DNA from: Candidatus Amarolinea dominans
GTDB lineage: Bacteria; Chloroflexota; Anaerolineae; SSC4; Amarolineaceae
Direction of reading: 5' to 3'
Length of the DNA stretch: 64,000 nt
Assembly (NCBI GenBank): GCA_016719785.1
Contig: JADJYJ010000010.1
Span: forward strand, 1 to 64,000
Shown: positions 4,231-58,142 of the stretch, piece by piece
Layout: every line of letters begins with the position of its first letter
How positions within the stretch are numbered: the first letter of the stretch is position 1
Notes under the pieces: generated by a model
The model's database searches: none
Seen by the model: the letters and a program-made list of their open reading frames with translations, nothing else
What the model was told of the DNA's origin: nothing
Translations under genes and position numbers: made by a program

Positions 4231-7200
4231 TTAGGGTCGCCCGGCGCTCGCCACCGACGCCGGCCACCAGGACGGCGTCGGAATGGCCCCGCGGCCCGCC
4301 AGCCCGCTGTGGTTGATGGTCACCAGGCGGTCGCCCTGCGAGGCGCCGACGTTGTACGGCGTCGCATTCGGGTCCGGGCCTTGCCCCACTTCAACCCACC
4401 ACATGTAGACTTCGCCTGACGGCCAGCCGGCGGGAATGCCCGTCAGGTTGACGCAAGCCACGTTGCCCAGGAAGGCCGTCGTGGCGGTTTCGCCGGTCAG
4501 CCAGTTGTAGAGCGCCAGCCGGTAGGTGTCGGTGGCTACGCCGCGCGGGGTCCAGCAGAACTGCGCCGGCAGCGTGATCTCGGCCCCATCCTCTGGCGAG
4601 ACCAGTGCGACATCGGCCACGTCGAAGTCTCCGCCCCAGGCCGTCGCGCCTGCGGTGTAGGCGGCCAGCCGGTTGCCCCACCAGCTCCACAGATACCCCT
4701 CGCCAGGGTTGGGGTCGTCGGGGGTGTTCAGATAGCGCACCGCGTAGAACTCGTCCGCGGTCAGCGCCGGCGCGCCGACGAAGAGATAATTGCCGTTTGC
4801 GGCCGTTATCGTCGCGGCCTGTGTGCTCCAATCATCGCCGTTCCAGCGCCGGAGGTCCAGCCGTAAACCGCCCGCGGCCGCGCCGTGCGAGGTGACCCGA
4901 CCGTAGATGCCATTGGCAGACGCTGTGGCTGTGGGGGTAGCGGTGGGCGTGCGCGTACGCGTGGCGGTCGGTGTGTTGGTCGGCGTGCCCGCGGACGCGG
5001 TGGGCGTGCGCGTGGGCGTGACGGTCGGCGTGCGGGTGCGCGTGGCGGTCGGTGTGCTGGTCGGCGTGCCTGCGGACGCGGTGGGCGTGGCGGTCGGTGT
5101 GCCTGCGGACGCGGTGGGCGTGCGCGTCGGGGTACGCGTCGCGGTCGGTGTGCGCGTGGGCGTGCTGGAAGCGGCGGCGGTCGGCGTGACGGTCGCGGTG
5201 GCCGCGCCAGAACGGCAGCCGAAGTCCTGCGCCCAGTAATGTTTGTAAGTGCTTGCTGCGTTGTAGCCGTAGCCGACGCCAATCTCGCAGACCAGGGGAT
5301 TGAGGAGATTGGCGCGATGGGGCGGGCTGTTCAGCCAGGCATTCACCACTGCTTCGGCTGAGTCCTGCCCCCAGGCGATATTCTCAGCAATCGTGTAGTG
5401 CGGCGAGTAACCGAAGCCGACCAATCTCGTGGTCATGTCACGGCCCAGGCGATCAATGTGGTTGGCGCTGATGTAGTTATACGCCGCCATGTCCCCGGCG
5501 AACCAGGCGGACGCATTGCCCAGGTTGGTCTGTGTTTGCAGCGGCGGCAGGCCGTTTTGGCTGCGCGCGGCGTTACTCAGCTCGATGACCCGGCGCACAA
5601 AATCGTTGCTGGTCGTGGTTGGCGTGGCCGTGGGAGTGCGCGTGGGCGTTGGCGTGGGGCCGCCCCCGCCCGCACGCCGCAACAGCGGCAGATACAGGCG
5701 TGGCGACTGCATCCGGAACCGGGCCGCCTGGAAGCTGGTCTGCTGGTCGAAGCTCACGCGGACGCCGAAGGTGTACTCGCCTTCCGGCGAGGTGGGCAGT
5801 CGCCCTTCCAGTGTCAGCGTGTTGGCGCCGGGCGCCAGCGTGCGCGTGCCGCTCTCGGAGAGCGCCGGGATCGCCTGGCGCGCGCATCCACCAGGATCAG
5901 GCTGTAGGTCGCGGTCACATCCTGCCCCACGCGGCCGGCGCTGCTGGCGGTATTGCTGATCACCGCGCGCAGACGGATGGACGCGCCGGGCGTCAGTGCA
6001 ACCGCTGGATTGCCCGCGCCGTCCGTCACCTCGACCGCGGCCATCTGCACAGGCGAGCAGGCGCGCGGGGTCAGGCCGATGTCCAGGTCCGTCACCGGCG
6101 GCGGTACGGTCACGGTGCGGCTCTGCGCGTCGGCGAAGCAGGGCTTGGCGGCCAGCACGTAGAAGCTGCCCGCTGACGTCTGCCAGCCGTAGCGACCGTC
6201 GCTGTTCGTGGCCTGCGGGTTGAGCTGCCCGGAAAGGGCCGGGTTCCAGATCGCGTCGCCCGTGACCGGGTCGCGCTGGTAGAGCGTCACCACCGCGCCT
6301 GGCAAGGGGGCGCTCGTGCTGGCATCGAAGACCTTGCCGGCCGGATCAATGCAGGCCAGCCGGCCGCTCAGCACAGTCTCGGTCATGGTGACGCCATCGG
6401 ACCAGACGACCCGCTTGGTCACGACGACGCCCAGGGCCGTGTTGGGGATGCTCGCCGCGCCGCGGTAGAGTCCGCCGCCGGAAAAATTGGACACACGGGT
6501 CATGACGCCCAGCAGGTTGCCCTGGCTGTCCACCAGGGTGACGCTGCTCGGCGGGTCGCCGTAGATCGGCTCCTCGACTGTGATGCTTGCGTGTGGTACA
6601 CATGAGACCACGAAGGGATAGTTGGCTGAAGTCACCCCGCGCCAGGTGTAGGGGCCGTAGGTGACGGTGGCCGCGCCCAGCCCGCGGCTGACATCCGACC
6701 GCACGGTGAATCCCTGGGCGAGTACGCCTGCCCGGCCGTTGGGATTGGTCACGGTTACATCGCGCGCCTGGCGCCAGGCCCGCGACCAGCGTTCCGCGCA
6801 CGCGCGCGCGGAAGGGCGGCGCTGTCTCGTCGGGCAAGTGCTGAAGGCCCTGCACGATGCTCGACCCCACCGCCGCCTGCAAGCCGGGCTGGAAGAAGTA
6901 GCCCAGGATGGTGACTTCGACGTTGATGCCCGCGCTGGCTGACGCCGGTTCGATGGCATCTACGATCGGGGTCGCGCCGTCGAAACAGCGCGAGAACTCC
7001 GAGGTGTTGCCGTTGGGGTCCGTGGCGGTGGCCGTCATCTGGTCACCGGCCGGCACCGCATTGACGAAGGTGGCCGAGAACGCGGCATTGCCCGAGGCGT
7101 TGGTGGTGGCCGTAGTTGCGCCCAGGAACGTCCCACCCTCGCCGTAACCCGAAGGATCGCAGGTGGGGCTGGCGAAGAATTCCAGCCGATAGCTCTGCGA

Positions 7201-34160: not shown

Positions 34161-36687
34161 TCAGAACCAACGATCCAGCATGAAAAAGTTCCATGCGTGT
34201 GTGATGTCCGTCAACCCCAGGACACGGAATCGAACACCGAGCGCAGCCCCGCGATTTCCGATGCTGACATCTGACCAGCTATTGCGCCAATCGCCATGAA
34301 ATTGCGTGATTTCGCGCCCCGTGTTGAGCAAACTGCCGCCCGGGCCGTACTCCGCCCCCATGGTCAGCGCCCAAGCCCAATGATGCACATTCGCATCGTC
34401 ATCTGAGGTGCCCATGAACGAGGCAGGCAACCCCTGCCGATCAAAATAAACCCAGGTCCGTATGGGATTCCCTGCATTGCTGACCGCCGGCCAAGCGTTT
34501 GGCGCTTCCAAGCGATTGGCTAGACCTCCGAACAGGCTACCAATGTCTCTGGTGAACATACCCTCTTCGCCAGCTTTGTACCAACCGGTCAAGCGTTCCA
34601 GCGCGCTTGGCATGTCATTCCATGACCAGTTAGCAGGTCGGTTGTCTCGGAATACGCTCTCCAGGTTTCCCTGGACGTAGTTACCGTCAGCGTCGTAGAA
34701 GACTGACCAATTCCACTCGCCAGGAAAGGCTATCGAGAACAGACGAATCAAAATGTCTTCGGCCGTCGGCGCACGATGATGCATCTGCTCAAATTCGTCT
34801 TGCCACGCCTGATCCAACGGGTCGTGGCCTGATGGATCGATAAAGCGTAGAGGATTATTCCGGCAGTAAGAGTAGCGATTGAGATTTTGCGGATCGCCAG
34901 GATTGGGTATAATGCTGTCGGGTTGGATCCACCGGTTAAGATAAGGGTCGTAGTATCTGGCGTTGTAGAAATACAACCCAATGCTCGCATCCTCGCGTTG
35001 ACCCGTGAACCGGTAGGTCGTCGGCGTCGCGCCGACGGGCGTCCCTCGATTCTCACCCCACGGCTTGTACCACAACTCCCCCGTGCGCTCACCGCTGGCG
35101 CCATTGGCCGTCACCGTCGTGCTACCCAGGTGATCGCGCAACAGCCAGTACAACACCCCCGCCACGCGCACGGCCACCCGCTGACCGTTGAAATAGTAGT
35201 ATTTCGTGTGCGTCGTCGCGCCGCCAACCACCTTCTTCTCGTACAGGTTGCCGATCGTGGTGACCGTCTCCCCGTTCATCACGCTCTTGACCCGGTTCCC
35301 ATCCGCGTCATACACGAAGCTCGCCGTTGCTGCCCCGCTGATGCTGACCAGGCGATTCTCGTCATCATACGTCAGGGTGTAGGTGTTCCCCCCGATCGTG
35401 CGCCGCCGCATGTTGCCGTTCTGATCGTAACAGTAACTGCTGCCGTTGCTTGTGCTCACCACCGCATGCTTCTTCACCAACGCACCTTCCGGGCAACTGC
35501 CCGCCTGCGCCACCCCGTAGCTGTACGTCCCCTGCCCCGTCTTGCTGATCAGGTTGCCCGCATTGTTGTAGCTGTAGCTCTCATCGTACACCCAGCTCCC
35601 GGTCCCATCGTCGTAGCCCGCGCAAATCGCATCACCCGTGAAGCCGCGCAACAACCGATCCAACCCGTCGTAGCTGAAGCACTGCCGCTGACCGCTATTG
35701 CGCGCATCCACGATCCAGCGCACATTGCCGGCCGTATCGTAGCCATACGTCAAGTCCTGCAAACTGCTGGCATCCGCCGACGTTCCTGCCTTCACCTTCT
35801 GCAGGCGCCCCAGTCCGCCGCTCGCTGTCCAGGGATGGTAGGTGAACGCCATCTGCACCACCGGATTGTTGTTGGTGCTCTGCTTGCCCAGCTTCAACTG
35901 CGTCAGCCTTCCGGCCTCATCATACACCGCATTCCCGCTGCGCACATAATCCACACTGCTGTACATCCGCCCCGGCAGCCCCTGCGCTGTGTACGCCACG
36001 TTGACCGTCTCCGCACTCTGGGTCGGGTAAACCACCCGCAGCACCCGGTCCGCCGAATCATAGGTGTAACCGAGGGTGTACGCCTCCCCATCAATCGTGT
36101 GCGTTTCCGCCGTCACCCGCCCGCGCTTGTCGTATGTCCAACTCGCGCTGTTGTTGACTTCGCCGCCCACATACGCCCTCATCCCGGTGCGCCGACCCTT
36201 GCCGAACTGCGTGGCCCCATCGAACGCATCATAGCTGTAATCGGCCAACACCATCCCGCTGCTGCTGCCGCTCTGCCATTTCTGCGTCAGCCGGTTCCAG
36301 TCCGTCATAGCCAAACCCTATCGTGACATTCCGCGCATCGGTCTGCGCCACCAGGTTCCCGGCCGTGTCGTACGTGTAACTCCACGCACCCATGTCCGGG
36401 TCGTTCATACTCGTCTTGCGCCCCAGCAGGTCGTACGTGATCGTCGTCACCGCCCCATCCGGCCCGGTCATCTGCAGCAGCCGGTCGGCGATGTCGTAAG
36501 CATAGGTCGTCACCCCGTTCGCATTCGCATTCCAGGCCGGCGTCGGACACGTGGCCGTGCCGCTGCCCAGTCGGTCGCCAGCCAGCGGGCGCGGGCGGGG
36601 CGGGGGGCTCGGGGCGCTTTGCGCTGATACCGTCGTCGCCAGAGTGGTAACAAGCATCAACTCTGCCGTGCAAAAAGGGGACATCAA
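34161..36687 (-). pseudogene. RHS/YD-repeat protein (about 840 aa) with signal peptide and about 240-aa C-terminal domain; one frameshift at about 36300
   Basis: ORF 36229-36687 carries the signal peptide and the first YD repeats, and ORF 34161-36314 carries the rest. The core ends ...YRFTGQREDASIGLYFYNARYYDPYLNRWIQPD...RFIDPSGHDP, followed by the C-terminal domain. Confidence 0.8.
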
Positions 36688-36765
36688 ACACCTCCTCTAC
36701 CCTAGATAACGCTACTTTATCACAGCGTTACTTTACCCAACTTTGGTAGTGGTGTCCAGTCCTCA

Positions 36766-37181: not shown

Positions 37182-40100
37182 CTACCTCGCCCACGGCTGA
37201 AAGTAGTACCATGGCACACGATGACCAGGCGAGTTGCTCGCCCAAAGCCCGGATCGCGCATCCACAGCATAAGTCACGGCCAAGCCAACCTCTGCCATGC
37301 TGATGATTCCATCATACAACATGGACCCGTGGCTTACCGCCACATACCCCAAGTTCAGATCGGGATTACTCAACTCGCTGAGAGGGCCATCTCGAAGCCA
37401 ATTGCTGGCGTAACCAGCAGCTGGCCCAAAGAAATACCCCAGGTAAAAAAGTCCTGCGTAATGATGGCTTGGATTGGGGTCATCAACCAATGATGCTCTC
37501 CAGTTGGCTGTGCCTTCGAAGAGAGGTTCATATTGGGCCCATGCAGCGCCAGGGTTGGTTGCCATCTGCCAGGCTGCAGGGATGGCATGGCCAAGCGGTA
37601 CACCTCCCCAAATAAAACCAATGGCTTGGGCGTATAATCCTTCCTCGCCGGGTGCATAATACGAGGCCAGTTGTTGAAGATGAGTAACAAAACGATCCAG
37701 TCCTGCAGATGGAGCGCCTTGCCATGATGTGCTACCTTCCCAGAGTCCTTCCCTATTGGCGTGATACCTTGTCCAATCCTCATCTGTCCACGAACCGTTA
37801 GCCCCACTGCCGGCAAACAAGATCGAAAAGAACCGATCTCGGCGATCTTGGTCAGTTGGCGCACGATCATGCGCGGCGTAGAAGGCTTGCTCCCACGCAG
37901 CATCTATGGGGTCAAATCCACTCGGATCCACAAAACGTAAAGGTCGGTTCCCGACATAGCTGTACCGATTCAAACTTTGCGGATCTTTGCGGCTGGGGAA
38001 TGATCGTATCCGCGGCGAGGAATCGCCCGATGACCGGGTCATACCATCGCGCCTGGTAGAACAGCAACCCTGATCCACTATCCCGCCGCTGCCCCGTGAA
38101 GTTGAACGTCGTCGGCGTCGTGCCCGCCGTGTAACGCGGCGCGCCGTAGGGGTAGTAGCGAATCTCGGTGTTGGTGTTCAACCGATTCCCCGCGCTGTCC
38201 AGCGTCAGCGCGGTGGAGCCGAGATGATCCGTCAGCAGATAGTAGAGTACACCGCCGCTGTTCTCCGCCACGCGTGCGGCGCCAGCGTAATAGTACTTCT
38301 TGACCGTCCCGTTGTCTACTTCGTAAGTGTTCCCTACGAAGACCCGGGTCGCGCCGCTGATGGTCTCCTTGACCCGGTTGCCGTCGCCGTCGTACACGTA
38401 ACTCGCCGTCACGCCCCCGGACATCGCAGTCAGCCGATTCTCCGCGTCGTAGGTCAACGTGATGTCCTGGCTGCCGCTGATGCGCCGGGTGGCGTTGCCA
38501 TTCTGGTCGTACCAGTATTTCTGATAGCCTGCCGTCGTGCCCCCGACATGGGTCACAGCATGCTTGTGTGCGCCATTCTGATAGTAGAGGTTCGTGCCTG
38601 TGCTCTCGAAATTGGTGATGTTGCCCGCATTGCTGTAGGCGTAATTGCGCTGGCTGTAAGCTCCGTAGTTTCCATTGTTGGCAACGCAGGTCCCCCCGCT
38701 CAGCGTGCATGCCGTTTGCAGACGATCCAGTCTGTCATACGTGAAGCGCAGCGCCTGGCTCCCGCCGTACGCCGCCGCATCCGTAATCGTCAGCACGTTG
38801 CCCGCATCATCGTACGTGTAGCTGATGTTCTGCCGGTTATCGTAGTTCGGACTCGTGCCTGCCTTCAGGCTCAGCAGGCGGAAGTTCTCGGCCGCACTGT
38901 AGGCGTACAGTTGTTTCACCACCCCGGTCGTGCTGCCCAGCCAGCGTTCCATCACCTGCCCGCGTTCGTTGTACTGCGTCTTGCCGACATAGTAGGTGCT
39001 GCCGTTGCTGCGCACTGTGTTCAGCAACCCCTGCGTCGTGTACGCATAGTGTACCTGCTCGCCAATCTGACTCGCACTGCCGCCGGGGTATTTCATCCAC
39101 AGCGGCCGATCCGCCGAGTCGTATCCCCACTGTGTCACGAAGGTTCCGCCGCCCGTTCCGTTGATGGCCTTGCTCTCCTGCGTTACCCGTCCGCGGCCGT
39201 CGTAGGTCCAACTCGCGCTGCCGGAGCTGTCGCTCATCCCGGTGCGTCTCCCCTTGCCGGTTGTGCCGCTGTCATACGTGTAACCCACCGCCGTCGCACT
39301 GCATCCACTCGACCCGCTGTAGGTCTTGCCCTTCACCCGGTTGAGGCCATCGTAGCTGAAGGTGATGACGCAACCCCGCGCATCGGTCTGCGTCTGCAGA
39401 TTGCCCGCCGTATCGTAGGTGTAGCTCCACGCACCCATGTCCGGGTCGCTCATGCTGGTCTTGCGGCCGGCCAGGTCGTACCCGATCGTCGTCACCGCCC
39501 CGTCCGGCCCCGTCATCTGCTTCAGCCGGTCGGCCACATCGTAGCTGTAGCTGGCCTGCCCGTAGACCGTCGCTCCCCAGTTCGGCGCAGCCCCCGGCGC
39601 CAGCGTCAGATCATACTGCTTGACACTCGCCAACCGCCCAAAGGCATCGCTCTCCGAGATCGTCTGGTGGTTCAGCTCGTCCAGCATCGCCGTCTGTCGA
39701 TTCTGGTAGTAGGTGCGCACGGTGCTGCCGTCCGCCTGCGTGACCTGCGTCACCCGCCCCAACCGATCGGACGTTGACTGCGTCGCGGCCAGCCCACTCC
39801 AGTTCACCGCCTGGTACGTCACTCCGCTCACCGTACTCGTGTACGGCGCCGAGGCCGCCGCCAGGTTGCCCAGCCCATCGTAGCGCTGGCTCACCAGGCT
39901 CCACTGGCTGCTGCTGTACTCCTTCTGCACCTGCCGCACGCGCCCCAACCCATCGTAGAACGTGCGCTCCTCCAGGTAGGTCGCACTCGCGCTGGCGTCG
40001 CCATTCCCATCATCGCGCAGCAAATGCCGCTGCACATACAACCCCTGGTCCGTCGTGTAGACAATCTTCTCCGTCGCCGGGTTGCTGAACCCCGCCCCCG

Positions 40101-43100
40101 GCTTACGCACCTCCGTCAGCCGGCCAAACGTATCGTACGTATAGAGCGTGACCGCCTCGTTGGCGTCGGTCTCGCTCTGTATTTGTCCCACCAACCCGCT
40201 GCCCCCGCCGTCGCATTCATGCCGTAGCGCGATGGTCGTCGTCAGCGTCGCGCCGCCCAACTGACAGGCCTGCACCGTTACGCTCATCGCATAGGCATGA
40301 AACGTGCTGTCGAAGGCCGTCGTGACCACGCTGCCATTGGCCGCCGTCTCGCTCCAACGGTTGCCCCATTGGTCATAGCCGTAAGCCGTCGACCGCATCC
40401 AGTTCGCGTCACACCCCGTGCCGCCCTGTCCCGCCTGCCACACCTCTCTCACCTGCCCAGCCGTCGGCGCCTGGTTGTACGCCGCATAGCCGCTGTAGTT
40501 GTCGTAGATGGTGCGCGTCTGCCCCTGGCATGTCCCGCTTTCGCTCCCCGCGAACAGCTTCTCCTCCGCCACCCGATTGACGATGTAGGTCGTGCCGTCA
40601 TTGCGTGGGGAATAGACCCGCTTGATCGTTCGGTATGGTATCGTTGGCGCGGCCTCGCTGTATAGCCGGGTCAACAGCAGATTGCCATACGCCGCATCGT
40701 AGGTGTTGACGCTTTTGGTGTAACGCAGCGGCGGGTCCGTGCCGTTGGGGTCCACAACGTATTCGGTCTTGTCTTGCAGATAGACGAAGTGCATCCCGCC
40801 CGGCGTCCCCACGCTGGTCTCGTTCCAGGTCTGCAGCGAACGCGCCAGCAAGTTGTTGGTGACGCCCAAACCCGCACGCGTCTCTGTCTTGGACAGCTTG
40901 CCTTTCCAGCGGTGCTGATTGGTCGTGGTGTGGAACCACTGCTTCAGCCGCGTGTCCGGCTGACCGCTGCCGATCAAGGCGCCGCTCCCTACCAGCGTCA
41001 TTTCCGCTTCGGCAAAGCCCCCCGCCTCGTTGTCCCAGGTCGTCGTGTACCAGTAGCTCGTCACGATGTCCGGATCGCTCCCGCCCCCACGCCGCCGCTC
41101 CTGCTGCACCACCATTCCGCCGCTCGAACCGCCGTACGTAACCTCCACCCGTCCCTGGTAGCCGTTGTTCACCGTCACCATGTGCCCATCCGTCGTGCCG
41201 CTCCCGTAGGTGTAGCTGGTTGGCGGCAGCGCATTGCTGCCGGTCCCATAGTGCGTGATCGTACTCAAGTACAGCCGGCTCTGCGACGGCGCCGCCGGGT
41301 TGATGAACGCCGTCATGCCCAACACCAGTTTGTGCAGCAGCGTATTGTTGGCCATCACCTCCACCCGCTGCAGGTACTTTCGTGTCCAGAAAACCTGGTA
41401 GCCGGTCTCGTCGAAGTGCTGAGCCCGGTCCTCCCGGTTCAGATAGAATAGCTTCAGCTTGAAGGCGCCGTTTGGCCCATAGCTGATCTCCTTCACCCGC
41501 ACCGCACGCACCTGGATGCGCGCATCGGCCGTGTAGTCGCGGTTCCAACAGTCTGCCGGCACATTCACCGCCAACAACGAACCCTCATAGTCATAGCTGA
41601 ACGTCAGACGATTAGGCGTCGTTGGCGTGGTGTCGCGCACCTCGGTCAACACCCACTTGGTGAAGCGATGCACCACCCGCAGTTCCGAAGGCGTCCAGTC
41701 TCCATTGCTGCAATCGCGCACATACAGCGCCGGCTCGAAGTGATAGGTAATGCCGCCCTCGGTCGTCACCTCCCACACCAGGTTGTCCCGGTTGTACAGC
41801 GCCGGCGTCTGGGGCAGATCAATCGTCTTGAAGGGCGTCGGCGTACTGGGGTCAAAACTTCCATCGACTGGATAGTCAGGGTTGGAAGCGGTGGGCCGGC
41901 GAATCTTCAGGAAGGGGTCCTGCACGCTGTAGAAAATCTCGCCGTGTTTCTCCAATTCATGGGTCACGCCGTTCAGGGTCAGGTGTACTTTCCCATGCCG
42001 TCTGGAGTCAAATCGTGCAGGATGTAGCTCAACCCACCGATGTCCCAGCCCCACCCGGCCAGTTGATGATGACCGGCGCCGGCCAGGCTGCGGCTGCTAT
42101 AGTCCAGGCTTAGCCCAGGCGCCAGTCCGCCCGGCCCCGGCGGCGCTGCGATCGGGTAGCTCACGGTCCAGGCCCCGTTGTACAACTGCGACTGCACCCC
42201 TTCGATCCCCGGCGCAGGCTCTGGCACAATGGCGTTGCCTTGCGCAAACAGCGTCAAATGGGTCAGGGTGGTGATCAGCCGCCTTTGCTCCTGATCCATG
42301 CTCGTTGGCAAGACCACCCAACGCCCGTCGGCCGCATCCTGGAAGAACAGCGAAGCGCCCGGTGGCCAGGGCGTTTGCTCATCGCCAGCCGCCGGATCGC
42401 GATAGCGCAGCGTCAACCCCACCGCAAACTGTGTCACCGGCAGTCCCGACATCTCCGTGGCGCTCAACTCGAACAGGAAATCAAGGTTCGCCGGCTGATC
42501 GGGATCGCTCTCGTGCGGGTGTAGCGCACCAGGGTCGGTGCGCTGACCGTACCAGCCGGAATCGTGAGCACCACCCGCCCATCGCTGCTCTGCAACCGGC
42601 TCTCCTGATCAGGCATCACCCACACCTCATCCGGCCCCGGCCCCGGCGTCCAGGTGGCGTCGGCGTCGGCGTACACCCCTCATCATCCTGGCAGGGGTGA
42701 CGGTGCAGCCGTCGGCGTTGGCGTCGCCGTCGGCGTCCAGGTGGCGGTCGGCGTTGGCGTCACTCCTCATCCTCGGTGGCGTGGCCGTCGGCGTCGGTGT
42801 ACACTCCTCATCCTGGCAGGGCGGCGGCTCGGCCGTCGGCGTGGCGGTCGGCGGTTCGGCCGTGGGCGTCGGCGCGCAGTCCTCGCCCAGGCAGGGCGCC
42901 GCGGTGATCGTGATCGCAGCGCTGGCCGTCACCCCTGCGCCCACCTCCTCGCTCACGATGGCCGCGGTGTTGGTGATGACCTGCCCGCTGACCGCACCCA
43001 GCGCCTGCGCCTGGAACGTGCCGGTCAGCGTCGCGCCCGCGGCCAGTTGGCCGATGACCCACTCCAGCCGGCGCTCGGCCTCCAGGTAGCTGAAATCCCC

Positions 43101-43322
43101 CTCCCCGGCCGGCCAATAGGCCAGCTCCAGCGGCAGGGTATCGCTCACCACCAGCCCGCTCAGGGCGCGGTCGGCCAGGGTGTTGGTGATGACCACGGTG
43201 TAGGTGACCACCCCGGCCGGCTCGACCTGCCGCGGTGCCGCGGCCAGCGTCAACTGCACCGGCGCAGGCGCGGGCGTCGCACCAGGATCGGAAATGAGAT
43301 CGAAATTGGGATCAGGGGACAT
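37182..43322 (-). pseudogene. Giant (about 2,040 aa) RHS/YD-repeat polymorphic-toxin-like protein: DUF11/CARDB-like domain, PT linker, SpvB-like N-terminal region, YD repeats, RHS core, about 270-aa C-terminal domain; about 4 frameshifts
   Basis: Pieces 42627-43322 (DUF11, TPTPTATP), 42464-42676, 41979-42467 (GWGWDIGGLSYI) and 37912-42054 (dozens of YD repeats; YYYAGAARV...LTDHLGSTAL...FTGQRRDSGSGLLFYQARWYDPVIGRF). These are followed by 37182-38078 (PxxxxDPSGFDP then the C-terminal domain). The shift at about 42005 occurs in a gggaaag run. Confidence 0.85.
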
Positions 43323-43345
43323 GGGTTTAGTAGCGGTATTTATCT

Positions 43346-43357
43346 GGGGGGGGGGGG
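43346..43357. repeat. Homopolymeric G12 tract (C12 on the RHS coding strand) about 25 bp upstream of the giant RHS start
   Basis: tatctggggggggggggtagcagc. Confidence 0.85.
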
Positions 43358-43726
43358 GTAGCAGCAGCCGCCGTGGAAAAGAGCAGGCTGAATACTACCA
43401 ACAGATGAACCAACGACGACAGGCGCGGCGCGAGCCGGCCGCGAGCAGAATGTCGAGAAGAGAGGAGAGAGAAAGTAGAACACCAGCGTAACATGACAAC
43501 GGACTCCTTTCGTGCAGCAATCGAAACGGCTGGGGTCAGGGACATTTTCCTGACTGCTGTAAGGAGGTCGCGGGCGGGAGAGAGAACTCTCGCCGGGGAC
43601 TTCCGACGGCGGGAGACGACTCGGAAGGCGGGGGGCATGCTTGTGGCTGGTCACAGCATACCACGCGCGCGGCGATCTGTCAAGAGGCAAATTCGGGTGA
43701 CGACAGGGAGTCACGAAGGAACCAAG

Positions 43727-43952
43727 GAATACTCCTTTGTGTCTTGGCGTCCCTGTGTGACCAAGAAAGAAATCTCACACAAAGACACGAAGAACACAAA
43801 GGAATCAGAGAATACTCCTTTGTGTCTTGGCGTCCCTGTGTGAGCAAATCCCGTTAACGCAAAAGACGCCAGAGGCGCAGGAGACGCAAGGGTTACTTGA
43901 AAACCCTTTGCGTCCCGGCGTCTTGGCGTCCCGGCACCCCGGCGTTGAAAAA
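43727..43952. repeat. Cluster of short GC-rich repeats (core TTGGCGYCCC): a 34-bp direct repeat x2 plus a 70-bp element related to 59547-59594
   Basis: gaatactcctttgtgtcttggcgtccctgtgtga occurs at 43727 and 43811. gagacgcaagggttacttgaaaaccctttgcgtcccggcgtcttggcgtcccggcaccccggcgttgaaaaa compares with gagacgcaagggctttttcttggcgccccggcgccccggcgttaaaat at 59547. Confidence 0.75.
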
Positions 43953-43961
43953 ATGGAACTA

Positions 43962-44576
43962 TCAGGCCATTGCGGCTGCGAAGCGCTTGCTGACCTCGTC
44001 CCAGTTGACGGTGTTCCACCACGCGGCCAGGTAGTCGGGCCGGCGGTTCTGATACTTCAGGTAGTAGGCATGTTCCCACACGTCAATGCCCAGGATCGGG
44101 GTGTGCCCGTCCATCAGGGGGCTGTCCTGGTTGGCTGTGCTATAGGCGGCGAGCTTGTGCTTGCCGTCCACCACTAGCCATGACCAGCCGCTGCCAAAAC
44201 GGGTAACGCCGTTCTGCGTGACCTTGGTCTTGAAATCGGCAAAGCTGTTGAACGTGCCGGCAATGGCCTCGGCCAGCGCGCCGGTCGGTTCCCCGCGGCC
44301 GCCGGGAGCCATGATCTCCCAAAATAGCTTGTGATTGTGATGCCCGCCGCCGTTGTTGCGCACAGCCGTGCGGATGCTCTCCGGCACGCCGGCGATCTCA
44401 GCCAGCAGGGCCTCCAGCGGTTTCTCGGCCAGTTCGGGCGCATTGGCCAGCGCGTTGTTCAGGTTGGTGACATAGGCCTGATGATGCTTGTCGTGGTGAA
44501 TCTGCATCGTCAGTTCATCAATGAATGGTTCCAGTGCGTTGTATGCATAGGGTAAAGGTGGAAGCGTATGAGCCAT
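43962..44576 (-). CDS. sodA: Fe/Mn superoxide dismutase
   Basis: [10 protein letters not shown], a GGGHHNH-containing helix, and [18 protein letters not shown], which is the metal-ligand Asp/His signature. Confidence 0.9.
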
Positions 44577-50638: not shown

Positions 50639-53008
50639 CTACCGGTTGATGCTGTTGTAGCTGGCCAGCCACTGTCCACTCTTGAGCGTCTCCGCCACGG
50701 CTACCAGTGGTTGGTTAGACTGAATCCGTACCGAACCTGTCCAGTTGCCGCCCAAAGAAATCGTAGCACAATGGTTGCGGGTATTGCGGCTGAGCGATCT
50801 GCCCGCGACGATCGTCAAGTTCGACTCCTGGAACGTCAGCGTGCCGTTCTGGTCGTAGTAATAGATGTCCACGTCAGTGGCATTGCTGGTAGTTGGATTC
50901 TGGATGCGCAAGATGGAGTACTGATCCCACTGGTTTTCACTGGACGGGCAAGAAGTGTAGGCGGTGTTCTTCTGGTAGACACCCGGCAGGTAGGTGTTCG
51001 TGCTCGCCAGTCCGCTGTGAACGCCGGTATAGGCGCCAGCCACGTTGTTGTCCGGCCGGAGGGTGATCTGCGCTACTGCCAGCGGCTGATTGGACTCAAC
51101 AATGACAGCGCCTGCCCATGCGCCTCCCAGAACACTGTAGACGCTGGCCTCGACATTGCCACCCGTCTTGGTGTTGAAGCCTTTGGCCGCATTCGGTGTG
51201 ATGGTTTGACCGGAGATGGTCAGGTCTTCGTTGCCGGTAGCGGCATTGCGATAGCGCAGGGTCACGTTGGCATTGCTGCTGCCCAGGTTTTGCACGATGG
51301 TGATCGAGAAGCCCTGCCAGCTTCCTGCGTTGGGATTGCAGTCGGTGCAACGCCGCTCTATGGAAGGTGCAAAGACCGGCCGTGCGCCACCGCTGACGCC
51401 GTTGTAAGCCGCCACATACCAGCGCCAGTAGTTGGTCAGCACAGAAGTGATGAGCTGGCCGTTGGTCGAGGTAACCTTGACTGCTCCGGTCCAGTTGCAG
51501 CCGGCCAACGTTCCGCATTGAGTATTGTAGTAGTCCGTCTGCCTCAGATCCGGCACTGCACCGCCTGGATCACGCAAGTCGTAATTGCGAAAGCCGTTCG
51601 CTACCAGGGTGTCGGAGCGCGTGAAGTCGGTCACGCCGCCGCGGTTGATGTACGTGAGCTCCAGGCTGGCGGCCGCGGTGGTCGTGTTTTGCACCATGAA
51701 GCGGGAATACTGGACGAAAGGCACGCCGTGGGTGACCGGATCCGGGTAGTAGACGGCGTAAGGCAGGTACATCGCAGCGCTACCCGCGTCGAAAGCGCTG
51801 TAGGCGACTGCCGCGTTGCCATCCCCATAATCGCCGCCGCTATAGCGATTCTCCACGATCACGGCCTGGTCCTGGCTGGCCACCGCCAGGGTTGAGCCGC
51901 GACAAAAGGCGCAATAGTTGGAGAAACGCACCTCCCTGGTGCTGTTGAGCGCAATGAAGTCGGTATTCTGCCGGTGTACCCAGTCGTCAGCGAGCAAGCT
52001 GGTGTTGACTTGGGCTACCTTGGCCTGGCTGTTGTTGCGCACCAGGATGGTCGAGTTCCAGCCGTAGTAGTTGGATAGGATGTCCGGCAGATAGGCGGGA
52101 TACAGACCAATGAAGGTGGTCCGGCCCGCGACGAAGGTGTGGTTGCCCAGGTCTTCATAGAGGGTGTCGTTAGGATAGCGAGCATAGAGGTGGTAGGTCC
52201 CCGGCTGCACGTCGGTGGTACCAAAATTCTCCACCACCAAGTCGTCCGCATTGGCCCAGGTGTAGGCATAGGTCTGTGACCAACCATAGCTCCCCCAAGT
52301 GGCATTGGCAGGTTTTTGTATGCCATGAATTCGCAATCCGCCGACTGGGTTTCCATTGGCATCGGTCACTTTGCCTACTGCGTTCGCTGTTTGGGTCCCG
52401 CCGTTATTGAATGATTCAAGCCAGAGTTCAGGGTTCCGCGACCGGGCCTCTGAGTCGAGTGTGTTAGGCTCCAGCTGTCTGTCTGACTCAGGATGAACAA
52501 CAATCTGCTGGTGTAGGTGATTTCCCTGCGAGTAACTACCGGTGTCGTCCACTTCACCGATCTTGGTTTGGCCAGCGTATACGACGTTGCCCACCTGTAC
52601 TGGTACACTCCATTGTTTGAGATGAAGATACACGGAGTAGACGTAAGCCATCTGTTGCGATGTACGATCATAGTGTCGCTGATTGTGACGCACGAGCGCA
52701 AAATTGCCCCAAGCGGTGCTTCTGTCTCCATCCGGTCTATCTTCACGCAGTTGGACAACCGTACCGTCTGCGACAGCGTATACGCTGGTGCCGTTTGGGT
52801 AGGGAAAGTCGATGCCTTTATGCGTGCTTCCACCGGACTCCTCAGCATACAAATAATACTGGTTGATCTTTCCACCATTGTCAGTGATCGGGCGTCGAAT
52901 TTGGTATGCTGCGTAAATGTCACCAATAAGCGCTGCCATCAGTAACACCAGGAATGCAGCGATAAGTACACTTATTCTGAACTGCTTTTCTACGAGTGTG
53001 TTTGTCAT
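50639..53008 (-). CDS. Membrane-anchored M23/LytM-family metallopeptidase with large C-terminal domain of unknown function (copy 1)
   Basis: N-terminal TM, HKGIDFPYP...GNHLHQQI (HxxxD...HxH M23 motifs), then a 550-aa Asn/Thr/Tyr-rich beta domain. Confidence 0.8.
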   Translation of the reverse strand: MTNTLVEKQFRISVLIAAFLVLLMAALIGDIYAAYQIRRPITDNGGKINQYYLYAEESGGSTHKGIDFPYPNGTSVYAVADGTVVQLREDRPDGDRSTAWGNFALVRHNQRHYDRTSQQMAYVYSVYLHLKQWSVPVQVGNVVYAGQTKIGEVDDTGSYSQGNHLHQQIVVHPESDRQLEPNTLDSEARSRNPELWLESFNNGGTQTANAVGKVTDANGNPVGGLRIHGIQKPANATWGSYGWSQTYAYTWANADDLVVENFGTTDVQPGTYHLYARYPNDTLYEDLGNHTFVAGRTTFIGLYPAYLPDILSNYYGWNSTILVRNNSQAKVAQVNTSLLADDWVHRQNTDFIALNSTREVRFSNYCAFCRGSTLAVASQDQAVIVENRYSGGDYGDGNAAVAYSAFDAGSAAMYLPYAVYYPDPVTHGVPFVQYSRFMVQNTTTAAASLELTYINRGGVTDFTRSDTLVANGFRNYDLRDPGGAVPDLRQTDYYNTQCGTLAGCNWTGAVKVTSTNGQLITSVLTNYWRWYVAAYNGVSGGARPVFAPSIERRCTDCNPNAGSWQGFSITIVQNLGSSNANVTLRYRNAATGNEDLTISGQTITPNAAKGFNTKTGGNVEASVYSVLGGAWAGAVIVESNQPLAVAQITLRPDNNVAGAYTGVHSGLASTNTYLPGVYQKNTAYTSCPSSENQWDQYSILRIQNPTTSNATDVDIYYYDQNGTLTFQESNLTIVAGRSLSRNTRNHCATISLGGNWTGSVRIQSNQPLVAVAETLKSGQWLASYNSINR

Positions 53009-53020
53009 TGCTCTTGCCTC

Positions 53021-54403
53021 CTAATAGTCTAACGAAGAAAGAACGATGAAATCAGGCGTTGCTGAAAGCCCGGTTTGCACTCCAATGCTCAGCGAGAGAG
53101 TCCACACCCTCCTTAAATCAGTAACATAGATCAGTTGGGTGCCATCTGGAGACCAGGTCGCCAGCCATTCGTTGCTGGCGCTCGTAAAATTCGAGGTTAG
53201 ATGTTTCAGCTCGGTTCCTGTCCTATCGATAAGCCACAGGTCGGTAAGGGGTTGGGGCTCTTCATAATATCGAATTCCGGTAAATACAATCCAATTTCCA
53301 TCAGGAGACCAACGGGGAATCCCCGCGGTCACGTCAATGTCTCGCGTGAGTTGGGTTTGTCTGGATCCATCAGGGTTCATAATCCACAAGTTGTAAGGAT
53401 AATCAGGACCTGATCTCTCGCCTAACAGAGAGACATACAGAATCTTATCGCCATTAGGCGACCATTGTGGAAAGTACAGTTCCGGTGCCTGTGGTGACAC
53501 CAGCACAGGAACAGATCCTCCACCGTCTGCCTCAACGACCACCATCGTGGCAGACCGCCGAAAAACACTGTCCACCAAGACCAAACGCTGTCCACCGGGC
53601 GCCCAAGCGAAATTGACGGCTTTATGTTCATTTTCTCGATCAACCGGATAAATCTCGCCTCGATCCCCGGTCGCCACATCCACAATCCACAAGCCCTGAG
53701 TCCGAGTACTGTGATAGGCGATGCGCGCGCCGCCAGGAGACCAAACCGGTTCGATTCCACCCTGCACCAGCTGCCGCAAGATCCCCATTCGAAGATCGAA
53801 TAGATAGATGCTATATTCGGGTGCTTCACCTTTACTTAAGGATGTCCGACTTTCTACGTTGCTCAATACTAAGGCAAGTTGAGTTCCATCTGGTGACGGA
53901 TTGGCCCATGTGTCAACACCCATATCTTGGCTGGCTAAAAAGAGTGGCACTTGGGCGTGAACATCTATTAGCACGCGCTCGCTCGTACCATCATTGCGGA
54001 TAGCGCGAATAAGATTACCGGTACGAAAAGCAATCGTATACGATGCGGTCTGTCCCGGTGGCAGCGGAATGATGGGCGGTACCGCGGTGGGGATGCGGGT
54101 CACCACCGGCGTGGGCAGCCGCGTGGGCACAGGCGGAATGGTGGGCGTCGGTCGCCGGGTCGGTGGGGGCGGCTCGATCCACAGCGTGGGGACAGGCGTC
54201 GGTGTCTGGATAGGAGACTGGAATAGTGATACGATAGGTCCCGTTGTGCTGCTTGGCATCGCCTGCGGCTGCGCGACTTCAGTCAGCGGCTCTGGCGTGA
54301 CACTTGGCGGCCACCCGGGCCCGCAACTGGCTAACACAACCAGCAGACCGGCCAACAGCAGCGCCCCCAGTGCGATAGTCAATCTCATGTGCAACCCATT
54401 CAT
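53021..54403 (-). CDS. TolB-like WD40/PD40 beta-propeller lipoprotein with Pro/Thr-rich N-terminal linker (copy 1)
   Basis: LVVLASCG lipobox, PTPT linker, repeated WSPDG...I.F/Y blades (PD40 repeats). Confidence 0.75.
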   Translation of the reverse strand: MNGLHMRLTIALGALLLAGLLVVLASCGPGWPPSVTPEPLTEVAQPQAMPSSTTGPIVSLFQSPIQTPTPVPTLWIEPPPPTRRPTPTIPPVPTRLPTPVVTRIPTAVPPIIPLPPGQTASYTIAFRTGNLIRAIRNDGTSERVLIDVHAQVPLFLASQDMGVDTWANPSPDGTQLALVLSNVESRTSLSKGEAPEYSIYLFDLRMGILRQLVQGGIEPVWSPGGARIAYHSTRTQGLWIVDVATGDRGEIYPVDRENEHKAVNFAWAPGGQRLVLVDSVFRRSATMVVVEADGGGSVPVLVSPQAPELYFPQWSPNGDKILYVSLLGERSGPDYPYNLWIMNPDGSRQTQLTRDIDVTAGIPRWSPDGNWIVFTGIRYYEEPQPLTDLWLIDRTGTELKHLTSNFTSASNEWLATWSPDGTQLIYVTDLRRVWTLSLSIGVQTGLSATPDFIVLSSLDY

Positions 54404-54938: not shown

Positions 54939-55298
54939 ATGATCAGTAGTGGTTTGCCGCCCATTCACCCCGGCGAGTTTCTGCTTGAGATACTGCATGA
55001 ACTTGGCATTTCACAGGCACAGTTTGCGCGCGCCATTGGCGTATCGCCTATGCGCGTGTCGTATGTCGTCAATCGCACACGCCCGGTGACGGCGGAACTT
55101 GCACTGCTTTTCGGTCGCGCACTGGACCAATCGCCGCAATACTGGCTCAATCTACAAGCGGCTTACGACCTGAAGACTGCTGAGATAGCTATCGGCCAGC
55201 AGTTGCTGACCGTTGCCCAGTTGGCGCCTGCTAGACAGGCCAATACACCTGTTGGCTTGCGCGAAGGCCGTTCGCCAGCAGGGTGTCGGTGCGCGTGA
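54939..55298 (+). CDS. higA: HigA-type antitoxin (HTH_XRE)
   Basis: IHPGEFLLEILHELGISQAQFARAIGVSPMRVSYVVNRTRPVTAELALLFGRALDQSPQYWLNLQAAYDL. The ORF tail reads antisense through the truncated M23 copy, so the true C-terminus is probably near 55240. Confidence 0.8.
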   Translation: MISSGLPPIHPGEFLLEILHELGISQAQFARAIGVSPMRVSYVVNRTRPVTAELALLFGRALDQSPQYWLNLQAAYDLKTAEIAIGQQLLTVAQLAPARQANTPVGLREGRSPAGCRCA

Positions 55299-56697
55299 AG
55301 TCGGTCACACCGCCGCGGTTGATGTACGTGAGCTGCAGGCTGGCGGCTGCGGTGGTGGCGTTTTGCACCGTGAAGCGGGAATACTGGACGAAAGGCACGC
55401 CGCCGGTGACCGCATCCGGGTAGTAGACGGCATAGGGTAGGTACATCGCGGCGCTACCCGCGTCGAAAGCACTGTACGCAACCGCCGCGCTGCCATCCCC
55501 ATAATCGCCGCCGCTATAGCGATTCTCCACGATCACGGCCTGGTCCTGGCTGCTCACCGCCAGGCTGGAGCCCCGACAATAGAAGCAATAGTTGGAGAAG
55601 CGCACCTCCCTGGTGCCGTTGAGCGCAATGAAGTCGGTATTCTGTCGGTCTACCCCGTACTCATCGTCGGCGAGCAAGCTGGTGTTGACCTGGGCTACCT
55701 TCACCTGGCTGTTGTTGCGCACCAGGATGGTCGAGTTCCAGCCGTAGTAGTTGGATAGAACGTCCGGCAGATAAGCGGGATACAGTCCGATGAAGGTGGT
55801 TCGACCCGCCACAAAGGTGTGGTTGCCCAGGTCTTCATACAGGGCGCCGTTGGGATAGCGCGCATAGAGATGGTAGGTACCCGGTTGAACATCCGTAGTG
55901 CCAAAATTCTCCACAAGCAGGTCGTCCGCATTGGCCCAGGCGTAGGCATAGGTCTGTGCTGTCAGGAAATTGTGCGCCGGGTCCCCTTCCGCTGCCAGGG
56001 GCTTCTCCATTCCCCAGATCAGCTTGCCGCCAACAGGATTACCGTTGACATCGGTGAGTTTGCCTATCGCGCTGGTCGTCTGAACACCGCTATTATTGAA
56101 CGCTTCCAACCACAGCTCAGGATTGCGCGAGGTGTTTTGCGACCACTCCCAATCCTCTGGGTCAGTACGGTTGAGATCCGTGGAAAGATTGACCTGCAGG
56201 TGAAGATGAGAAAGGGTGCTATTACCCGTGCTATTGGACTGGGCAATTACCTGTCCGGCACTGACAGTATCATCAACATTGACGCTTATGCTGTTATACT
56301 TCAGATGCGCGTAGATTGAGTACACATAGGCCATTTGACCCACTGCACGATCGTAGTGCATTCGAGCATGCCGTATCATCACGTAGTTGCCAAATGCACC
56401 CTCTGTGTTTTGATTGTCACGCACATCCTCGTTAACGGCCATTACTCTTCCATCATCGGTAGACCGAACATTGGTACCTGTTCCATGCCGGAAGTCTACA
56501 CCTCTATGAACTTGGCCACCAGATTCTTCTCCATACAAGTAGACTTGATTGACGATGCCACCGTTATCAGTGATGGGCCTTCGGATAGAATAGGCAGCAT
56601 ATACGGTTATGACCATAAGAGCCGCAGTAACAGCAAGAATAAGCAAGCCATAGATGACGTAATGTCGTGGGTGAGAATGCTTGATCATAAGAATCAC
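55231..56697 (-). CDS. M23/LytM-family metallopeptidase paralog (copy 2), truncated at the 3' end by the higBA insertion
   Basis: Close to copy 1 through ...TRTDTLLANG, then 11 unrelated codons and a stop inside the higA region. It lacks the last about 300 aa of copy 1. Confidence 0.7.
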   Translation of the reverse strand: MILMIKHSHPRHYVIYGLLILAVTAALMVITVYAAYSIRRPITDNGGIVNQVYLYGEESGGQVHRGVDFRHGTGTNVRSTDDGRVMAVNEDVRDNQNTEGAFGNYVMIRHARMHYDRAVGQMAYVYSIYAHLKYNSISVNVDDTVSAGQVIAQSNSTGNSTLSHLHLQVNLSTDLNRTDPEDWEWSQNTSRNPELWLEAFNNSGVQTTSAIGKLTDVNGNPVGGKLIWGMEKPLAAEGDPAHNFLTAQTYAYAWANADDLLVENFGTTDVQPGTYHLYARYPNGALYEDLGNHTFVAGRTTFIGLYPAYLPDVLSNYYGWNSTILVRNNSQVKVAQVNTSLLADDEYGVDRQNTDFIALNGTREVRFSNYCFYCRGSSLAVSSQDQAVIVENRYSGGDYGDGSAAVAYSAFDAGSAAMYLPYAVYYPDAVTGGVPFVQYSRFTVQNATTAAASLQLTYINRGGVTDFTRTDTLLANGLRASQQVYWPV

Positions 56698-56768
56698 CTC
56701 TTGAATGAGAGCCTTGCATTGTCAGTGACTTCCACACAGGTTCTGATTGTGCGCCGATGAGTCGAAAT

Positions 56769-58142
56769 CTATCGCAAGAGAAGAAACGATACGACATCGT
56801 GATCCCAGGCTTGCCTGAGTGAACCGTCTCTGAGGGTCACATCCCAAATCCCGTCGCCTTCCCTGTAGAATACTATCCGCTGCCCATCCGGTGTCCAGAC
56901 TGGGTTCAGGTCAGTAGCAGGGTCATTATTCAGGCGTGCGAGTGCATTCCCATCATTGCTAATCAGCCAAAGGTCATATTGATAGGGTTCGCCTTCCAAT
57001 AGATTCGTTCCTGCAAAAGCAATCCAATTGCCATCCGGCGACCAGACTGGTGCGCCGCCGCCAGCGCTCATGTTTCGAGTCAACTGCCGCTGTACTCCGG
57101 TGTCTGCTTCGACAATCCAAATGCTAAGCGGTCGTCCGGGAGTTAGTCGTTCACCTTTCCTTGATCGGAACAAAACGTCCTTACCAGTAGGAGACCACTC
57201 GAGACCCAAGGCGTTCATCTCCATTGAAACTACTTGACGAGACTCGCCGCCATTGCCCACATTGACGATCCAAATACCCCCTACATTGGCGACACCGCCC
57301 CAGTTCTTCACCACGGCGATTCTCTGCGCATCGGGTGACCATGTGAACCAATCGGCCTGATGCTCGGTTTCGGGATAGCCTACAGCGAACAGTTCTTGAG
57401 TGTCCCCTGTGGCCACATCTACCACCCACAACCCCTGGGTTCGGGTGCTGCGATAGGCAATGCGAGCACCATCCGGTGACCACACCGGCTTGACGCCGTC
57501 TTCCACCAGCAATCGCAGGTCCCTGGTCGCCGGATCGAGGAGATAGATGGCGAATTCAACCTGTTTCCCCCTCGGTAACGTATCGAGGTTCTCGAAATCG
57601 CTTGCCACCAGCGCCAGTCGGCTGCCATCGGGCGCAGGACTGGCCCAGGTGCCCACCAGGAAGCTGCGGTCAACCAGAAAGCGCGATAATTGGGCAGGAA
57701 TGTCTATCACCACCCGGTCGTTGCGGCCGTCGCTGTCCACGGCTCGCACCACACTGCCCTCTCGATAGACGATGGTGTATGGTTCCGGCTCTCCCGGTGG
57801 CAGCGGAATGATGGGCGGCACCGCGGTAGGGATGCGGGTCACCACCGGCGTGGGCAGCCGCGTGGGCACAGGCGGAATGGTGGGCGTCGGTCGCCGGGTC
57901 GGTGGGGGCGGCTCGATCCACGGCGTGGGGATAGGCGTCGGCGTCTGGATAGGAGACTGGAATAGTGATACGATAGGTCCCGCTGTGCTGCTTGGCATCG
58001 CTTGCGGCTGCGCGACCTCAGTCAGCGGCTCTGGCGTGACACTTGGCGGCCACCCGGGCCCGCAACTGGCTAACACAACCAGCAGACCGGCCAACAGCAG
58101 CGCCCCCAGTGCGATAGTCAATCTCATGTGCAACCCATTCAT
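56769..58142 (-). CDS. TolB-like WD40/PD40 beta-propeller lipoprotein (copy 2)
   Basis: The first about 110 aa and the upstream 80 bp are identical to copy 1. The propeller is about 55% identical. Confidence 0.75.
   Translation of the reverse strand: MNGLHMRLTIALGALLLAGLLVVLASCGPGWPPSVTPEPLTEVAQPQAMPSSTAGPIVSLFQSPIQTPTPIPTPWIEPPPPTRRPTPTIPPVPTRLPTPVVTRIPTAVPPIIPLPPGEPEPYTIVYREGSVVRAVDSDGRNDRVVIDIPAQLSRFLVDRSFLVGTWASPAPDGSRLALVASDFENLDTLPRGKQVEFAIYLLDPATRDLRLLVEDGVKPVWSPDGARIAYRSTRTQGLWVVDVATGDTQELFAVGYPETEHQADWFTWSPDAQRIAVVKNWGGVANVGGIWIVNVGNGGESRQVVSMEMNALGLEWSPTGKDVLFRSRKGERLTPGRPLSIWIVEADTGVQRQLTRNMSAGGGAPVWSPDGNWIAFAGTNLLEGEPYQYDLWLISNDGNALARLNNDPATDLNPVWTPDGQRIVFYREGDGIWDVTLRDGSLRQAWDHDVVSFLLLR

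Follow-up and report, generated by a model that had tools for sequence, protein, structure and literature searches.

The window, the whole stretch of 64,000 nt from Candidatus Amarolinea dominans that was analysed, carries on its minus strand an RHS gene adjacent to a superoxide dismutase (SOD) gene, sodA. Its features are collected in Table 1, and related loci and proteins are referred to by L and P numbers. The 1,380-aa piece of the RHS gene has RHS/YD repeats (PF05593 at 1.4e-32, TIGR01643 at 1.5e-21), and the RHS-associated core (TIGR03696) begins in the 1,380-aa piece and ends in the 298-aa piece; since the core domain is shared between them, the pieces constitute a single RHS gene, interrupted in the assembly. 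Its reading frame is broken by an in-frame stop at 42629 and by shifts near 42697, 42658, 42518, 41985 and 37989, with a further break at about 42779, such that the single RHS ORF of ~2,040 aa described in the initial annotation is instead found as four minus-strand pieces. What is annotated as a 231-aa "DUF11 protein" (P0003, 100% identical to the DUF11 segment of the window) is a cut-off central portion of a far longer gene for a secreted RHS protein.

Table 1. Features of the window and states of the poly-C tract in the alleles compared. Positions are those of the window; alleles are identified by locus.
Feature	Position or locus	Strand	Remarks
Promoter-like site (TTGACA, 17-nt spacer, TG-TATGCT)	43655-43683	-	10/12 matches, extended -10
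Conserved 5'UTR, ~150 nt	43495-43648	-	Transcription start placed from the promoter alone
Shine-Dalgarno (SD) AAAGGAG	43504-43510	-	9 nt before ATG 43494; kept in all cassettes, including distant orthologue L023
True gene 5' end as assembled	43327-43494	-	ATG 43494, predicted signal peptide MLRWCSTFSLLSSRHSARGRLAPRLSSLVHLLVVFSLLFSTAAAA, TPPPP, DKYRY, TAA (43329-43327)
CT-rich 21-nt repeat region	43456-43482	-	STFSLLS unit; signal-peptide n-region
Poly-C tract	43346-43358	-	C13 on the coding strand, G13 on the plus strand
DUF11/CLIPPER-domain segment with Pro/Thr-Cys linker repeats	42627-43322	-	PF01345, 1.2e-10; 231 aa; ends at in-frame stop 42629-42627
RHS gene remainder, three frames	37182-42608	-	
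First piece of the remainder	42608->41979	-	SpvB-like, weakly
Second piece of the remainder	42054->37912	-	1,380 aa; RHS repeats and first part of Rhs_assc_core
Third piece of the remainder	38078->37182	-	298 aa; end of core and C-terminal variable region
Orphan RHS C-terminal fragment	34161-36573	-	Downstream of the main RHS
Allele C9	L011, L013, L014, L015		In frame
Allele C12	L021		In frame
Allele C11 with the following AG missing	L001		In frame
Allele C13	Window		Out of frame
Allele C16	L006		Out of frame
Allele C11	L012		Out of frame
Allele C9+A7	L022		Out of frame
Allele C6TC9 (interrupted, total 16 nt)	L004		Out of frame
Allele CCTCCTC7 (interrupted, total 13 nt)	L016		Out of frame
Allele C6ACTCC (interrupted, total 11 nt)	L017, L024		Out of frame

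The orphan fragment is 95% identical to L012 1093-2719, the C-terminal third of an intact RHS, and by its sequence appears to be a case of classic RHS C-terminal displacement or orphan-module shuffling; its reading frame changes near 36297. Downstream of the RHS gene, where a cognate immunity gene would be expected, the small ORFs at 36229-36691 have no Pfam hit. Within the RHS gene, the Cys/Pro/Thr linker at 42627-42860 (minus strand) is built of PCLGEDC / PCQDEEC...TPTPTATP units whose repeat number varies among alleles (at one site, 61 nt in the window, 3 nt in L001 and 24 nt in L012). Short-read contigs break at this linker, and long-read copies lose frame there.

The poly-C tract lies at the 5' end of this gene (plus-strand context ...TTATCT GGGGGGGGGGGGG TAGCAGC...) and is the only homopolymer of at least 8 nt in the 64-kb window. 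The G/C runs of the window number 321 four-mers, 53 five-mers, 12 six-mers and 1 seven-mer, each added base cutting the count ~4-5-fold; there are no runs of 8-12 nt and then the one 13-mer. A G13 occurs in 0/100 dinucleotide-preserving shuffles of the window. The tract is far beyond chance and non-random. In ~250 kb of related DNA, all G/C runs of at least 9 nt sit at the same site of the cassette described below. The initial annotation had noted a homopolymer of 12 G about 25 bp upstream of the RHS start codon. The observation is real, yet the run was miscounted (13, not 12) and mislocated relative to the gene: it does lie 23 nt 5' of ATG 43322, but this ATG is not the gene start.

On the minus strand, the upstream frame that enters the tract holds GAAAGGAGTCCGTTGTC-ATG, where the ATG is 43494. 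The peptide MLRWCSTFSLLSSRHSARGRLAPRLSSLVHLLVVFSLLFSTAAAA that follows combines an Arg-rich, positively charged n-region with a hydrophobic core of 16 residues and an AAA motif, and is predicted by inspection and hydropathy to be a Sec-type signal peptide. The tract forms codons 46-50 of the CDS starting at 43494, directly after this signal peptide. As assembled, C13 encodes T-P-P-P-P and throws the downstream gene out of frame, and the product from ATG 43494 is truncated at 55 aa. Removal of one C gives ...AAAATPPPQINTATKPMSPDPNF..., which continues into the DUF11 ORF without a frame change; provided that the assembly is correct, mending the tract alone would extend the product only to 286 aa. 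The start region at 43495-43499 (minus strand) has overlapping TTG and ATG starts (TTGTCATG) in two frames behind one SD.

The signal peptide itself varies in length. Its n-region includes a 21-nt unit that is present once in the window, ~2 times in L011/L014, ~3 times in L005 and ~4 times in L012, always in frame; the tandem repeat codes for (S-T-F-S-F-L-S)n (L005 11083-11200; L012 about 6560-6660, minus strand). In clean contigs, the distance from the ATG to DUF11 less the tract length equals 159 + n x 21. The signal-peptide indels other than the tract are thus multiples of 21 nt, which argues that the region is under coding constraint. The 21-nt repeat represents a second hypervariable element within the cassette.

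A search for sigma-70-like promoters gave a sole candidate, at 43683-43655 and ~300 nt upstream of the tract, and no promoter-like hexamers were found around the tract. The site is kept in all 14 Amarolinea-type cassette copies listed, with single-base changes in the -35 of L012 (TTAACA) and the -10 of L024 (TGTGCT), and is missing in the distant L023. The 5'UTR of ~150 nt is strongly conserved among paralogous cassettes and partially in L023. It includes a hairpin (GUCAGG...CCUGAC) at 43535-43554, and in the consensus fold CCUCCUU (43561-43567) is predicted to pair with the SD AAAGGAG (43504-43510); the 5'UTR may be an SD-sequestering regulatory leader. This fold receives no covariation support because all of the paired bases are invariant, and an Rfam scan of 43250-44000 returned only sub-threshold noise of miRNA-like hairpins. 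Two 53-nt direct repeats (43712-43764 and 43795-43847), which are 90% identical, each hairpin-forming and the source of sub-threshold miRNA-like Rfam hits, occupy part of the interval from the sodA terminator to the RHS promoter and may be a REP/MITE-like element. They correspond to the "repeat-rich leader" of the initial annotation and are upstream of the promoter.

Comparison to a distant orthologue places the tract within the coding sequence. L023/P0012, which shares 51% identity with the in-frame N-terminus of the window (alignment A1; 53% by local BLASTP), has retained the SD, the ATG and the signal peptide, from which it continues uninterrupted into DUF11. At the position of the tract it has GCC ATT CCT GTG CAA, with no homopolymer, and at the position of the window Met-43322 it has Leu. 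Because L023 reads through without a homopolymer, the tract is a derived feature inside an ancestral coding sequence, and because this orthologue is continuous from the signal peptide into DUF11, ATG 43322 is an internal Met. Similarly, gene callers fused the signal peptide to DUF11 where the tract is in frame (L001, 476 aa; P0001, P0002 and P0008), and homologous N-termini are joined in frame in P0001, P0002, P0012 and P0013. The 231-aa ORF of the window was annotated separately because its tract is out of frame. The TAA of the 55-aa ORF lies 4 nt before ATG 43322, and an independent 55-aa leader peptide followed by re-initiation at this ATG was considered; it was rejected as the main reading, as the orthologue and the in-frame alleles represent a single continuous protein. 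Plus-strand ORFs overlapping the tract and alternative upstream frames have no Pfam match, and thus there is no gene on the other strand.

These relationships bear on the mechanism suggested in the initial annotation, in which ATG 43322 is the start of the RHS gene and the tract, as part of its promoter or 5'UTR, modulates the initiation of transcription or translation. The proximity of the tract to the ATG that opens the 231-aa ORF, and the call of this ORF by the annotators of the source MAG (P0003), are consistent with that scheme. The region before 43322 has no SD, however, and the conserved promoter, SD and ATG are all upstream of the tract; the homopolymer-free orthologue is continuous across the position of ATG 43322, and the in-frame alleles are called as fused proteins. 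Homopolymers that switch a promoter or 5'UTR separate the -35 hexamer from the -10, precede the promoter or form part of the untranslated leader, whereas the tract of the window is 136 nt downstream of the start codon. Modulation of promoter spacing or of a 5'UTR is therefore highly improbable. The tract instead has the hallmarks of an intragenic simple-sequence repeat: a G/C homopolymer longer than the ~8 nt minimum, within a CDS near its 5' end, with a repeat number that switches between a full-length ORF and a premature stop. From its position, such a tract would act by translational frameshift and premature termination.

The same locus was retrieved from other assemblies via the neighbouring superoxide dismutase protein, with flank identities of 99.1-99.7%. 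In at least six different genomic contexts, RHS genes begin with one and the same block (promoter, 5'UTR of ~150 nt, SD/ATG, signal peptide, C tract and DUF11), which is therefore a paralogous cassette. The tract was compared among 14 alleles of the Candidatus Amarolinea dominans type, which are paralogues or derive from different strains rather than from a clonal lineage and are known as consensus assemblies; the frame was scored against the conserved signal-peptide core. By this measure, 6/14 alleles are in frame and 8/14 are out (Table 1). A 4-nt offset in the n-region shifts the SD-ATG of L013 and L021 out of register with the core, which in these two alleles can be read in frame only from the overlapping TTG start. 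The C11, C13 and C16 states lead to a TAA within 1-6 codons of the tract. Two states are found in one MAG, GCA_049661785.1, which includes L006 (C16, OFF) and L021 (C12, ON). The suggestion of the initial annotation that the tract is prone to slippage and toggles expression ON and OFF thus agrees with the alleles, in which lengths differ (9, 11, 12, 13, 16 and interrupted) between conserved flanks and toggle the reading frame, although part of this polymorphism could be technical. Among GTDB representative genomes, an exact DNA-pattern scan for the tract flanks gave no match, and a protein-alignment scan gave three distant DUF11 matches only, none of which was informative.

The source of the assemblies is relevant to how these lengths are read. 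A long-read study yielded MAGs of Candidatus Amarolinea dominans, and by their accession series L001, L013, L017 and L024 presumably belong to this MAG set. In the long-read assemblies, every multi-copy RHS copy is fragmented by 1-nt indels and the single-copy flanks are clean; likewise, the window and L001 differ by many 1-nt indels in the RHS region and by few in the flanks. The warning of the initial annotation that the tract length is unreliable in this assembly is well taken on these grounds. Within a public contig of the same MAG set, L007 782-3988 (GCA_016718485.1, JADKDF010000076.1) consists of ~3.2 kb of nearly pure poly-C, clearly an assembly artefact and a caution for homopolymers of the set, and some of the lengths come from contigs of low coverage (L011 at 2.5x and L012 at 1.6x). 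Homopolymer and repeat regions of long-read MAGs are not to be taken at face value, and some of the allele length differences may be technical. Taken to its limit, this argument would have the true tract in frame (e.g., C12 or C15), the gene simply ON and the length differences reduced to homopolymer miscalls. That extreme is unlikely, as C6TC9, CCTCCTC7 and C6ACTCC (the latter in two assemblies), with totals of 16, 13 and 11 nt, are hard to miscall and are out of frame, and as short contigs, presumably short-read, have pure tracts of 9, 9, 9, 11, 12 and 16 nt as well as C9+A7, in all three frames. The interrupted and short-contig tracts therefore point to real frame-shifting length variation in the family, even if the count in the window is wrong.

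Real variation may also be that of a decaying gene. The RHS next to the SOD gene could be a pseudogene, or an emerging one, in which a C9 coding for TPPQ expanded and drifted after selection was lost, leaving a tract that is mutable and switches nothing. In addition to its in-frame stop, the window RHS has at least four private frame breaks at sites that are alike in L001 and L012. Those three alleles of the SOD-adjacent locus that deserve most trust (13, 16 and 16 with a T) lie in a single OFF frame; one of these is interrupted (by the T of L004), and L006 has GTG in place of the internal ATG. By its sequence, the SOD-adjacent copy looks more like a fixed-OFF gene than one that is actively switching. 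Interrupted OFF tracts occur elsewhere (L016, L017 and L024), and L015/L016 is a truncated RHS remnant; each of the four interrupted alleles (three different sequences) is OFF, which suggests that some copies are locked off or decaying. By contrast, 11 kb of flanking genes are intact and the 1-nt indels that riddle multi-copy RHS genes of long-read assemblies form the pattern of unpolished repeats, such that the extra frame breaks and the C13 count of the window may be either errors of this kind or decay of this copy. The DUF11 segment past the tract is intact in every allele seen. In the short-read L012, moreover, the RHS ORF behind the out-of-frame C11 is intact over ~2,080 aa (2,153 aa with the signal peptide) and includes DUF11, an SpvB-like region, RHS repeats, a ..VFVDPSGY.. 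motif and an HExxH-containing tail, which fits a recent or reversible frameshift and not old decay. Decay of the SOD-adjacent gene is, on this evidence, rather unlikely as the explanation of the tract.

The preferred reading, to which a probability of roughly 0.5 is assigned, is that the tract is an intragenic slipped-strand contingency switch in the RHS CDS; its place in the ancestral coding sequence, the frame consequences and the length polymorphism of the alleles are evident from the sequences compared, while slippage, reversibility and an adaptive role would be the properties expected of such a switch. The gene would encode a Sec-type secreted DUF11-SpvB-like-RHS polymorphic toxin with a hypermutable poly-C simple-sequence repeat within its CDS. 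Transcription would proceed from the conserved TTGACA/TATGCT promoter and translation would begin at the SD-ATG 43494. With C9, C12 or C15, the signal peptide would be in frame (..AAAATPP(P)QINTATKPMSPDP..) with the DUF11/RHS body and the gene ON; with other lengths, a TAA 1-6 codons past the tract would end translation and the gene would be OFF. Slipped-strand mispairing during replication would alter the C count and make the ON and OFF states heritable and, in principle, reversible. The copy in the window would be OFF (C13), with further frame breaks as assembled, and is possibly defunct. As several RHS loci are headed by the same cassette, the toxins could switch independently, in the manner of a family of contingency loci.

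An OFF tract in the DNA need not preclude all expression, and slippage on the poly-proline codons or the C run could possibly give some product from OFF alleles. Slippage of tRNA-Pro by +1 on CCC-C is established biochemistry, and precisely one +1 shift, or an mRNA lacking one C, would put the OFF state of the SOD-adjacent locus (13, 16) back in frame; several alleles also hold this same OFF frame ahead of an intact downstream DUF11 ORF. Recoding, by which slips of RNA polymerase on the C run or of the ribosome on CCC-C would yield some full-length RHS from OFF DNA, is nonetheless very unlikely to account for the tract, given that no stimulatory element was identified and that the OFF alleles fall in both wrong frames, L012, L017 and L024 requiring -1 or +2.

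The slippage-switch mechanism itself is well known, and what would be new is the organism, the RHS cargo and the multi-copy cassette. The closest likeness is to the nanH3 sialidase of Gardnerella piotii, a secreted or cell-wall protein in which a poly-C of 8-14 nt lies right after the signal peptide, C9 and C12 lead to the full-length enzyme, other lengths lead to a short peptide of the signal peptide only, and heterogeneity within a strain is demonstrated by cloning (Kurukulasuriya et al., bioRxiv 10.1101/2020.09.16.300947). In Candidatus Amarolinea, C9, C12 and C15 would similarly be ON and the OFF product would be a 55-aa signal peptide stub. The two differ in that nanH3 encodes a sialidase of Actinomycetota of the human vagina, whereas the Amarolinea gene encodes an RHS polymorphic toxin of uncultured environmental Chloroflexota and belongs to a multi-copy cassette. 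Intragenic poly-G/C contingency loci are also described from Campylobacter jejuni, Neisseria meningitidis and Bordetella pertussis (PMC8355987, PMC5084427, PMC1891110). Shared with these are G/C tracts of at least 8 nt towards the 5' end of genes whose products are secreted or lie at the cell surface, lengths that toggle the frame between strains and the presence of several loci per genome. Unlike these host-associated pathogens, for which switching rates are measured, Amarolinea lives freely as filaments in sludge and the case for it is made by sequence comparison; furthermore, its tract spread with a duplicated promoter/signal-peptide cassette and did not originate gene by gene. Homopolymer switches of promoter spacers and 5'UTRs, such as the Bordetella fim poly-C and Neisseria porA, opc and nspA (PMC6389960), likewise have a homopolymer close to the 5' end of a virulence or surface gene and mutate by slipped-strand mispairing. 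Those tracts lie between or upstream of the -35/-10 elements and tune transcription; by contrast, the Amarolinea tract is ~300 nt downstream of the promoter-like site and in the CDS.

The RHS genes share with RHS/YD polymorphic toxin loci the RHS repeats, a core with a DPxGY motif, a variable C-terminal domain and an orphan fragment, which here matches the C-terminus in L012. They differ in having a Sec-type signal peptide, DUF11 and Cys/Pro/Thr linkers and in being without the PAAR/T6SS-type N-termini of proteobacterial Rhs. No homopolymer frame switch is described among the matches listed from the literature on Rhs genes, and a literature search found nothing that ties Amarolinea or Chloroflexota to phase variation.

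Slipped-strand contingency loci have to date been characteristic of host-adapted pathogens, and Candidatus Amarolinea is a free-living filamentous member of the Chloroflexota that dominates bulking activated sludge. If the tract truly switches, it would extend such loci to the Chloroflexota and to RHS polymorphic toxins of a process-relevant wastewater organism, and would point to bet-hedging in inter-bacterial antagonism. A tentative extension, possible though on balance doubtful, is that Candidatus Amarolinea maintains multiple copies of secreted RHS toxins under a mobile cassette with a 21-nt repeat and a poly-C switch, by which cells or filaments express different subsets in a contingency system for inter-bacterial competition, in an environmental lineage that is not pathogenic.

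The occupancy of the locus varies among strains (L002 7157-14074 and L010 1835-9062; L003 10905-13979 and L005 11083-11317). Some strains have a MalT-like/TPR gene after sodA and no RHS. In other strains, the cassette promoter and signal-peptide n-region run into a gene for a Tricorn/PD40-like lipoprotein with a LAVAC lipobox, accompanied by an M23 peptidase and a YD protein; the fusion may be a product of recombination within the signal peptide or an assembly chimera. Elsewhere in the window, a gene pair for a Tricorn/PD40-like lipoprotein (460 or 457 aa) and an M23 peptidase (789 or 488 aa) is duplicated in tandem at 50639-54403 and 55231-58142 (minus strand), with near-identical N-termini and conserved upstream regions.
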